A stretch of 64,000 nucleotides of DNA from sequence record PX930852.1. One strand, given 5' to 3'. The DNA is from a phage. Every line of letters starts with the position of its first letter. Position 1 is the first letter of the stretch. Position numbers and translations under genes: made by a program. Positions 43,866 through 44,149 of the stretch are shown here, piece after piece. Below the pieces are notes generated by a model. That model saw only the letters and a list, made by a program, of their open reading frames with translations, ran no database searches and had not been told where the DNA came from.

Positions 43866-44009
43866 AATTATCTTTGTAGATAAGCTACCCAGACTTGCTT
43901 AAGGTCTGTAGCGATGTGCCTTTTTGGGTTTAAATCTAGAATTTACCCTTTCACCCTTTGTGGTCGCATACTCACAGGTAAGCTTAATAACTTATCTACA
44001 AAGATAATT
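43866..44009. repeat. 19-bp perfect inverted repeat enclosing about 106 bp
   Basis: AATTATCTTTGTAGATAAG at 43866-43884 pairs with CTTATCTACAAAGATAATT at 43991-44009; internal hairpin CAGACTTGCTTAAGGTCTG. Confidence 0.55.
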
Positions 44010-44122
44010 ACCAGACCGTTGTTTATCATCTTAAGTGCTACCATTACACCAACTCGACATCTGCCGAGTGAAGGAATCGAACCTTCTCCTTTTCTGTACC
44101 GGAGAAATAGATTGTTTAAGTT

Positions 44123-44149
44123 TTGCTGTAAACGGTCTTCTGTAAATTT
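44123..44149. repeat. short dispersed repeat TGCTGTAAACGGTCTTCTGTAAATTTG (copy 1)
   Basis: identical 27-mer at 44671-44697; diverged copies at about 44207 and 44836. Confidence 0.6.

Follow-up and report, generated by a model that had tools for sequence, protein, structure and literature searches.

What does a phage encode between two neighbouring tRNA genes when the space separating them holds a long perfect inverted repeat and, beside it, what looks like a piece of a tRNA? We addressed this question in a stretch of 64,000 nucleotides (nt) of sequence record PX930852.1, hereafter the window. It belongs to a Felixounavirus-like phage, and the region is 95–98% identical to Felixounavirus phages of Escherichia and Salmonella. 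ARAGORN found 25 tRNA genes at 39799–45025, all on the minus strand; the features of this cluster are given on that strand, the tRNA sense, unless stated otherwise. The gap between tRNA-Asp(GUC) (44291–44368) and tRNA-Lys(UUU) (43786–43861) measures 429 nt (43862–44290) and contains both elements under study. We consider it fairly probable that it holds tandem structured non-coding RNAs (ncRNAs) downstream of a gene for a Ro60-like protein, namely a circularly permuted tRNA mimic and an RNA closed by the inverted repeat, with a conserved signature that would dock the Ro60-like protein.

Two predicted structured RNAs in the tRNA-Asp/tRNA-Lys gap

The T arm described by an earlier note on this DNA (GAAGG-AATCGAA-CCTTC as written on the plus strand, 44070–44086) is present, but it is not the isolated tRNA fragment, with no matching acceptor partner, that the note took it for. 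The partner lies downstream on the minus strand, where ACUCGGC (44069–44063) pairs with GUCGAGU (44058–44052) over 7 bp. It had been overlooked because the search went upstream, as in a normal tRNA, while the acceptor here is a closed hairpin. The T arm belongs to a permuted mimic with an acceptor hairpin, a D arm and a closing stem. In the minimum free energy (MFE) fold of 44150–44005, a cloverleaf with a loop-closed acceptor is formed, and its open end runs into the closing stem, with an AGA/G internal loop. The MFE fold, the pair counts and a score of 158 bits with a covariance model (R2, described below) delimit a YrlA-type tRNA-mimic RNA of about 138 nt at 44008–44145 (mod2).

Within these limits, the MFE fold places an outer helix, UUAC/GUAA, and a bulged closing stem, AGACCGUU/AACGGUCU. 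The 5' strand of this stem leads straight into the conserved motif UACAGCAA (44123–44130; family consensus UWC[A/C]GCAA), and further on comes a V (anticodon-like) hairpin, UUUCU-CCGGUAC-AGAAA (44091–44107), whose helix is 80% paired. The T arm, GAAGG-UUCGAUU-CCUUC in the tRNA sense, is invariant in 10 relatives and corresponds to positions 49–65 of the tRNA model. It is followed by the closed acceptor-like hairpin ACUCGGC-AGAU-GUCGAGU (44052–44069; 7 bp, 4-nt loop), which covaries, and, after a U8-like U and a G, by the D arm GUGU-AAUGGUA-GCAC with its conserved GG (44035–44049), recognized from the sequence and the pair counts. The tRNA landmarks U8, A14, G18G19, A21, the G53-C61 pair and a UUCGAUU T-loop can be read from the sequence. 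The layout of a canonical tRNA, a complete cloverleaf in normal order whose D arm has the 5' acceptor strand upstream of it, was not found; the order is permuted, and ARAGORN predicted no tRNA in 43862–44290.

Homologues for the comparison of the acceptor were chosen by synteny alone, from the tRNA-Asp/tRNA-Lys gap. The hairpin is 98.6% paired among them, and three of its seven pairs are changed on both sides across genera: ACUCGGC/GUCGAGU in Felixounavirus, ACACGUU/GGCGUGU in Suspvirus and in Mooglevirus of the Sf15 type, and ACCCUUC/GAAGGGU in the Mordin type. The closing stem and the UUAC/GUAA helix are invariant within this phage group, and different yet complementary in paralogous copies and distant loci. 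The loop of the V hairpin is not conserved: it reads CUGGUAA in some relatives and has 6 nt in many Felixounaviruses, and the whole hairpin is replaced in the Mordin type. Because the loop length varies and the hairpin can be replaced, we do not regard it as a decoding anticodon. Judged from sequence and predicted folding, the supposed T-arm fragment forms the core of a YrlA-type, circularly permuted mimic of tRNA.

The inverted repeat is as the earlier note reported it, with AATTATCTTTGTAGATAAG at 43866–43884 and its exact reverse complement at 43991–44009 (19 bp, perfect, 106 nt apart). It extends to 22 nt with one mismatch and, as RNA, to 24 bp with G·U pairs. From the base composition of the window, about 1e-4 perfect 19-nt inverted repeats no more than 200 nt apart are expected by chance, and no other perfect inverted repeat with arms of 15 nt or more and a loop of 30–160 nt occurs in the whole 64 kb. 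The folding test proposed in the note came out clearly: the 152-nt minus-strand RNA reaches -48.3 kcal/mol, against -27.7 ± 3.9 for shuffled sequences (n=200), that is, z = -5.3, with 0 of 200 shuffles as stable. The resulting inverted-repeat RNA, of about 144 nt (43866–44009), overlaps the outer helix of the tRNA mimic by 2 nt at its 5' start and stops 4 nt short of the 5' end of tRNA-Lys, which directly follows it. Its closing helix, P1, consists of a 5' strand at 43991–44009 (the right arm of the note), with the RNA helix running on to 43986, and a 3' strand at 43866–43884 (the left arm), where it runs on to 43889. P1 thus provides the terminal helix joining 5' and 3' ends that is a classical Y RNA trait, here 19–24 bp around about 100 nt.

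The internal hairpin noted between the arms is borne out as well, the interior carrying three hairpins. One of them, GGGUAAA-UUCUAGA-UUUAAACCC (43926–43948), has a loop, (A)UUCUAGAUU, that sits on a hairpin and is the same in both alleles described below. The 3' interior hairpin, CUAC-AGAC-CUUAAGCAA-GUCU-GG-GUAG (43885–43911), shows a compensatory change from G-C to A-U in six sequences, and a 3' end of the form CUAC-AGACC-UUWAGCAA-GGUCU-G-GUAG is common to both alleles. With its AGACC stem, UUWAGCAA loop, bulged G and outer helix, this hairpin resembles the family signature set out in the next section, in miniature and without a payload. An alternative register of it competes with the last five P1 pairs, at the inner end of the helix.

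Two alleles of the inverted-repeat RNA were found across Felixounavirus, Suspvirus and Mooglevirus. Allele A, that of the window, occurs in about 200 phage records, whose gaps are 95–99% identical, and allele B in some Felixounaviruses and in all Suspvirus and Mooglevirus records examined. Pairing is conserved in these syntenic gaps, P1 being 97.9% paired across both alleles, between which four pairs have changed on both sides (twice from U-A to C-G, once from G-C to C-G and once from U·G to G-C) and one base pair has been gained or lost in a coordinated way. Since P1 contains invariant U·G pairs and changes from A-U to G·U, which are workable on the tRNA-sense strand only, it is read as an RNA helix of that strand. 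Of 14 sequences, 13 fold more stably as the tRNA-sense strand, and the mean difference is about 5.7 kcal/mol. In allele B, an interior helix (columns 61–68/92–99) is 96.9% paired, with four of its eight pairs changed on both sides; therefore, the interior is constrained and not the stem alone. By this comparative evidence selection acts on the interior, a constraint superfluous for a mere cleavage site, and the inverted-repeat RNA is a separate, adjacent, conserved structured RNA. Its long closing stem and miniature signature hairpin are suggestive of membership in the Y class.

The allele B interior of two Sf15-type sequences (L003 and L133) reads GUGCCGAAGAG, which fits the canonical YrlA motif GNCGAAN0-1G; the same site is GCCGAUGA in all other allele B sequences and GCGACCA in allele A. 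GCCGAAG is confined to Sf15-type allele B. This match is probably a coincidence.

A shared frame within the array and in distant phages

The tRNA mimic shares a frame with other RNAs: an 8-bp stem starting with AGR, the motif UWC[A/C]GCAA, a payload, and a complementary strand ending with YCU, followed by G. The tRNA array is made up of repeated modules, and three more intervals of the window show this frame. Within the same gap, mod1 (44153–44232) has the form GAGC-AGA-AGACCAA-AUACAGCAA...UUGGUCU-G-GCUC, with a payload that is not tRNA-like. The spacer between tRNA-Met and tRNA-Asn, UUAC-AGA-AGACCGU-UUACAGCAA...ACGGUCU-G-GUAA (44617–44693), has a short payload and lies flush between the two tRNAs, whereas that between tRNA-Glu and tRNA-Met reads UGAC-AGA-AGACCAA-UUGCAGCAA...UUGGUCU-G-GUCA (44780–44860). 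R2 classes both spacers as payload-poor family members (expectation values, E, of 6.7e-8 and 2.1e-5, respectively). The outer helix covaries among the window paralogues (UGAC/GUCA, UUAC/GUAA and GAGC/GCUC).

To look beyond the close relatives, we fetched 80 IMG/VR loci, each encoding a relative of the Ro60-like protein, mostly 39–48% identical. A scan with a strict pattern retrieved cores consisting of T arm, closed acceptor and D arm in several loci, on the strand of the protein gene and away from predicted tRNAs. The shared frame emerged from the folds of these cores and had not been selected for: the outer stem and motif flank 11 of 13 tRNA-like cores, with about 0.15 expected when the flanks are shuffled. 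Scanning for the frame only gave 70 matches on the strand of the gene versus 10 on the opposite one, and 45 of the 70 were no more than 2 kb away from the gene, frequently as tandem copies immediately following or preceding it. MAFFT alignments of the distant tRNA-mimic modules (A2, A3) were structurally poor and were discarded; R2 was built from close relatives (A5) instead, using only Felixounavirus, Suspvirus and Mooglevirus sequences. It nevertheless found full-length matches in distant loci (L031, E = 2e-12; L080, 6e-10; L022, 2e-7; L055, 1e-6; L083 and L084, 4e-6), with L017, L032, L011, L076 and L021 also below E = 0.01. All 46 matches with E < 1 were on the strand of the gene. Searched against Rfam at gathering thresholds, nine of the distant loci returned tRNAs and chance matches only. 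In L011, two tRNAs are separated by almost nothing but the family member, and this suggests that tRNA processing may release these RNAs.

More tentatively, it is possible that phages carrying a DUF2828-type Ro60-like protein share a hitherto undescribed family of Y-like RNAs, defined by the bulged AGR...YCU-G stem and UWC[A/C]GCAA with interchangeable payloads. Five members would reside in the Felixounavirus array, among them the permuted tRNA mimic and the inverted-repeat RNA, released by tRNA processing. The RNAs and the protein would form a ribonucleoprotein (RNP) that defeats a host defence (Ppl in the case of phage Bas63), the tRNA-like payload acting as a decoy or tether. In some members, N-CCA comes after the acceptor-like 3' strand, within the loop (L004, of the Mordin type; L055, 7563–7618; L080, 7843–7901 and 10527–10582), which resembles a genuine tRNA 3' end. 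This is a hint that cleavage by RNase P could lay bare a CCA end, as has been reported for M. smegmatis YrlA. For this sub-case of a 7-bp acceptor followed by NCCA, RNase P might open the RNAs into split, CCA-ended tRNA-like molecules.

Other structured elements were encountered in these loci. L020 contains a tRNA-like element whose acceptor is stretched to about 20 bp by complementary flanks (5058–5160), in a locus encoding a Ro60-like relative. A suppressor-type tRNA (anticodon UUA, 'tRNA-Stop') is located close to the Ro60-like gene in L083 (3231–3307) and L084 (4374–4450), and L028, which also carries a Ro60-like gene, contains a group I intron (11696–11922; Rfam, 71.5 bits).

The Ro60-like gene, a candidate mechanism and rival explanations

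The stop codon of the Ro60-like gene (45190–46605, minus strand) is located 1,045 nt upstream of the tRNA mimic, on the same strand. The 471-aa product matches Pfam DUF2828 and DUF7788 and belongs to PHROG 850 ('RNA-binding protein'), which has thousands of homologues. Its AlphaFold (AF2) model, computed from 30 homologues with a predicted local distance difference test (pLDDT) score of 88, predicts a HEAT ring and a C-terminal vWA domain with a MIDAS (adhesion site dependent on metal ions) motif, DVSGSM, of which the D, the V and both S are invariant in homologues. The model corresponds to Ro60 along its entire length; its 11 best PDB fold matches were all Ro60/Rsr/TROVE proteins (about 500–580 alignment columns, E = 5e-9 to 6e-7, template modelling (TM) scores 0.48–0.65), among them the Ro60 of Thermus phage phiLo (PDB 9KOP / 9L5Y). 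A phmmer search against PDB sequences returned no Ro60; the fold comparison alone found it. By synteny, the gene is the ortholog of gp130 (bas63_0130) of the sister Felixounavirus Bas63, which a 2024 preprint reports to be Ro60-like and to counter Ppl, an uncharacterised defence system (10.1101/2024.10.10.617714). The authors of that study speculated that some of the downstream 'tRNA genes' are Y RNAs (10.1101/2024.10.10.617714). Both RNAs of the gap are probably RNA partners of the Ro60-like protein. The earlier note had likened the layout of the inverted repeat to that of Y RNAs; the region does appear to hold Y-RNA-like genes, with a Ro60-fold gene 1 kb upstream, but the clearest Y-like RNA is the T-arm element and not the one closed by the repeat. 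Upstream of the Ro60-like gene, 46687–47058 (minus strand) encodes a 123-aa DUF5681 protein, found likewise upstream in Bas63 (bas63_0129).

Promoter-like sites were found upstream of the Ro60-like gene (46674–46645) and between it and tRNA-Pro (45171–45143 and 45081–45052, which form a mutual direct repeat). No promoter- or terminator-like site was found inside the 43862–44290 gap, and because of this, the simplest reading is that the gap RNAs are probably co-transcribed with the tRNAs. From such a precursor, tRNA-processing enzymes would excise the RNAs, RNase P cutting 4 nt beyond the repeat, where the 5' end of tRNA-Lys lies, while RNase E or RNase III may cut elsewhere. The long closing helices would shield the excised RNAs from exonucleases. 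The signature stem and the UWCAGCAA motif would then serve as the docking site for the Ro60-like protein, comparable to the GGUCCGA/GNCGAA helix of Y RNAs, and the payloads (in mod2 the tRNA-like domain, in the inverted-repeat RNA its interior) might recruit a second factor or act as its decoy. Candidates for this factor would be an exoribonuclease of the host, an enzyme that recognises tRNAs or a protein involved in defence.

Several observations weigh against this reading. A search of the region against Rfam (15; E <= 1 and E <= 10) gave only a partial tRNA match of 17.7 bits (cut-off 29), and neither Y_RNA, YrlA nor any other Rfam family appeared at E <= 10, the presence of a YrlA model in Rfam being unverified. 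The canonical Ro60-binding motif GNCGAAN0-1G is absent from 44145–44008, where UACAGCAA holds the equivalent position, and Pfam TROVE (PF05731) does not match the 471-aa protein, which is Ro60-like by fold only. The negative-control set used for R2 was unclean, having been fetched with the module's own T-arm sequence; it contained two true members (L089 and L148) and a tRNA-dimer false positive (L114). Regarding the inverted-repeat RNA, its covariance model (R1) found no homologue in 75 distant loci and, within the window, only a weak paralogue (42712–42803), so that this RNA was not found beyond the Felixounavirus/Suspvirus/Mooglevirus group. P1 lacks the family signature, as well as a bulged Ro60-binding helix of the GGUCCGA type, being uninterrupted in allele A, and its covariation amounts to roughly one allele split and hence to few independent events. 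Finally, the 19–24 bp near-perfect P1 duplex also resembles an RNase III processing site, and simpler long hairpins stand 5' of tRNA-Leu(UAG) (42718–42797) and tRNA-Arg(UCU) (43384–43418), sharing with the inverted repeat an AUCUUU...AAAGAU base and an AU-rich tail. Another AGACC-loop-GGUCU hairpin precedes the one at 42718–42797.

The last two points lead to the most tangible alternative, in which the repeat is an RNase III-type (or RNase E-guiding) stem that belongs to the pre-tRNA-Lys leader and directs cutting of the polycistronic tRNA precursor, while the ~100 nt between its strands are discarded. P1 ends 4 nt before tRNA-Lys and offers about two turns of uninterrupted double-stranded RNA (19 perfect bp; 24 with G·U), the hairpins with the same base stand directly 5' of their tRNAs, and RNase III has been reported to cut the precursor of the phage T4 tRNA cluster. 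We nonetheless regard a processing stem alone as unlikely: the interior is conserved and covarying, with the invariant loop UUCUAGAUU in both alleles and a signature-like hairpin, and cleavage needs none of these. The two roles are compatible, as RNase III cleavage in P1 could release the interior RNA. A small probability goes to the view that the block of T arm, acceptor and D arm is the junction of two decayed tandem tRNA genes and the gap is debris of array turnover. Such an origin fits an array built of repeated modules, and in the Mordin type G-CCA follows the acceptor's 3' strand, which is how the 3' end of a real tRNA looks. tRNA dimers can mimic the layout, as in the false positive L114 (the same caveat is given in PMC4201824), and one annotator called a 131-nt 'tRNA-Thr(GGU)' at this place. 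However, neither ARAGORN nor Rfam found a complete tRNA on either side, pairing of the supposed 3' and 5' halves is kept through three different sequences, unlike in debris, and the gap is 95–99% identical in ~200 phage records. Moreover, the permuted layout recurs within the same signature stem in distant phages, beside the Ro60-like gene and away from tRNAs. Covariation across the junction and this distant recurrence lead us to reject decayed tRNAs as the present state, while an origin of the mimic by tRNA duplication is plausible.

The earlier note had also allowed for a DNA cruciform. A role of the palindrome at the level of double- or single-stranded DNA, whether by cruciform formation, by binding a dimeric protein, as a signal for recombination or replication, or as the end of a mobile element, is in our view very improbable, even though the allele A repeat is perfect, each arm contains the small palindrome TTATCT-N4-AGATAA, found nowhere else in the window, and the alleles resemble a swapped cassette. 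The helix uses conserved G·U pairs, which are A·C mismatches on the opposite strand, and the better folding of the tRNA-sense strand (~5.7 kcal/mol on average) favours a transcript; no target-site duplication, transposase or nuclease gene is associated with the repeat. TTATCT-N4-AGATAA was considered as a conserved operator-like site and rejected, being absent from allele B. Hardly any weight at all is given to small proteins encoded by the gap. Open reading frames (ORFs) do exist, such as one of 85 aa on the plus strand (43914–44171), and small coding sequences are annotated at this place in several records, bas63_0137 and bas63_0138 of Bas63 among them. Yet their limits vary among close relatives (85 aa here versus 36 aa and 50 aa in Bas63), 1-nt indels occur inside the ORF among near-identical phages, the alleles cannot be aligned as protein while RNA pairing is kept, and the ORFs are antisense to the tRNA transcription unit. 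In the Bas63 locus (L205), the annotated bas63_0138 (2975–3085) and bas63_0137 (3097–3249) lie across the inverted-repeat RNA and the tRNA mimic in antisense orientation; these, like similar calls in several other records, are probably spurious.

Further features were recorded in the array. Just 3' of tRNA-Asp, two conserved hairpins (GAGAGGGCU...AGCCCCUC and CCUUAAAGGG...CCUUUAAAGG) occupy 44232–44285, the second with a compensatory difference in the synteny alignment (G-C in the window, A-U in relatives). Good sigma-70-like promoters of the form TTGACA-17/18-TAxxxT are present on the minus strand at 45052–45081, 45143–45171 and 43583–43611; the last, located after tRNA-Ile, probably starts the next part of the array. 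ARAGORN missed a tRNA at 43300–43378 (minus strand; Rfam, 31.7 bits, cut-off 29), whose syntenic place is annotated as tRNA-Arg(UCU) in REP5 and Bas63. A possible aberrant tRNA-Trp lies at ~43067–43151 (minus strand), with the anticodon loop CUCCAAA, an abnormal D region, the T-arm GGGG-UUCAACU-CCUC and the acceptor GUGGGAC/GUCCCAU followed by G-CCA. ARAGORN is silent there and Rfam gives only a 23-bit tRNA-Sec-like match; the array is otherwise without a tRNA-Trp. The other large gap of the array, 43380–43685 (minus strand), gave weak Rfam matches to tmRNA and permuted tmRNA (15–28 bits, cut-off 47), likely driven by tRNA-like pieces. Insertions in this region of VpaE1 and GEP101, suggested by split BLAST matches, were dismissed: repeated spacer modules are the source of this artefact, and the gap length is normal.

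Comparison with known Ro60 and Y RNA systems

Particles of Ro60 and Y RNA are well studied in animals and a few bacteria, while their role in phages has barely been explored. The proposal of RNA partners for gp130 becomes testable with candidate RNAs for which coordinates, structures and a conserved motif are given. These candidates also indicate that genes for structured RNAs can lie in the unannotated gaps of phage tRNA arrays and beneath the small hypothetical ORFs called there; with the simple signature, annotating such RNAs in many phage genomes may become feasible.

Stable RNAs among phage tRNAs have a precedent in the tRNA cluster of phage T4, where the small species 1 and species 2 RNAs (rnaC/rnaD) are co-transcribed and co-processed with the tRNAs; we know of no Ro60-like gene in T4. 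Long end-to-end helices can also serve as processing sites, as in the RNase III stems flanking rRNAs. The inverted-repeat RNA resembles metazoan and Deinococcus Y RNAs in its long end helix, its structured interior of about 100 nt and its linkage to a Ro60-fold protein. Unlike them, it has no bulged GGUCCGA helix, pyrimidine-rich loop or Rfam Y_RNA match, and its length is about 144 nt, versus the ~100 nt given for Y RNAs (PMC4201824).

Among phages, Thermus phage phiLo likewise encodes a Ro60-fold protein and two adjacent Y-like RNA genes with closing stems between 5' and 3' ends (PMC12135203). Its Yrl1 and Yrl2, however, were picked by a CGAA motif, lie upstream of the gene, and have no reported tRNA-like domain (PMC12135203), whereas the RNAs described here are downstream of the gene, inside a tRNA array, and carry a different motif. 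In Bas63, as in the window, the Ro60-like ortholog is directly upstream of tRNA-Pro. The Bas63 study identified no RNA (10.1101/2024.10.10.617714), and our candidates lie in unannotated gaps, not among the annotated tRNAs. Literature searches on DUF2828, on Felixounavirus RNA-seq and on Bas63 together with Ro60 yielded no description of these RNAs.

The closest counterpart of mod2 is YrlA, a tRNA-mimicking bacterial Y RNA with a circularly permuted-like layout, described in S. Typhimurium and M. smegmatis (Chen et al. 2014, PMC4201824; 10.1101/312249). The differences concern the 5' motif, which is UWC[A/C]GCAA after a bulged AGR...YCU-G stem and not GNCGAAN0-1G; the candidate partner, a DUF2828/DUF7788 (PHROG 850) protein with a Ro60 fold and without a Pfam TROVE match; and the setting, a family embedded flush between tRNAs in a phage array and without an Rfam match. 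Because the GNCGAA motif is absent and the candidate partner is Ro60 at the level of fold only, we set mod2 apart from the members of YrlA. In both, the order of parts is the same: a 5' stem strand, a short motif, a V hairpin, a T arm, a loop-closed acceptor, a D arm and a 3' strand. In both, a stem made by pairing of the two ends takes the place of the anticodon stem. Both are encoded less than 4 kb from a Ro60-type gene, on the same strand. The 7-bp acceptor-like stem of mod2 is also that of the RNase P-cleaved YrlA of M. smegmatis, and tandem partner RNAs are found here, as YrlB is found beside YrlA.

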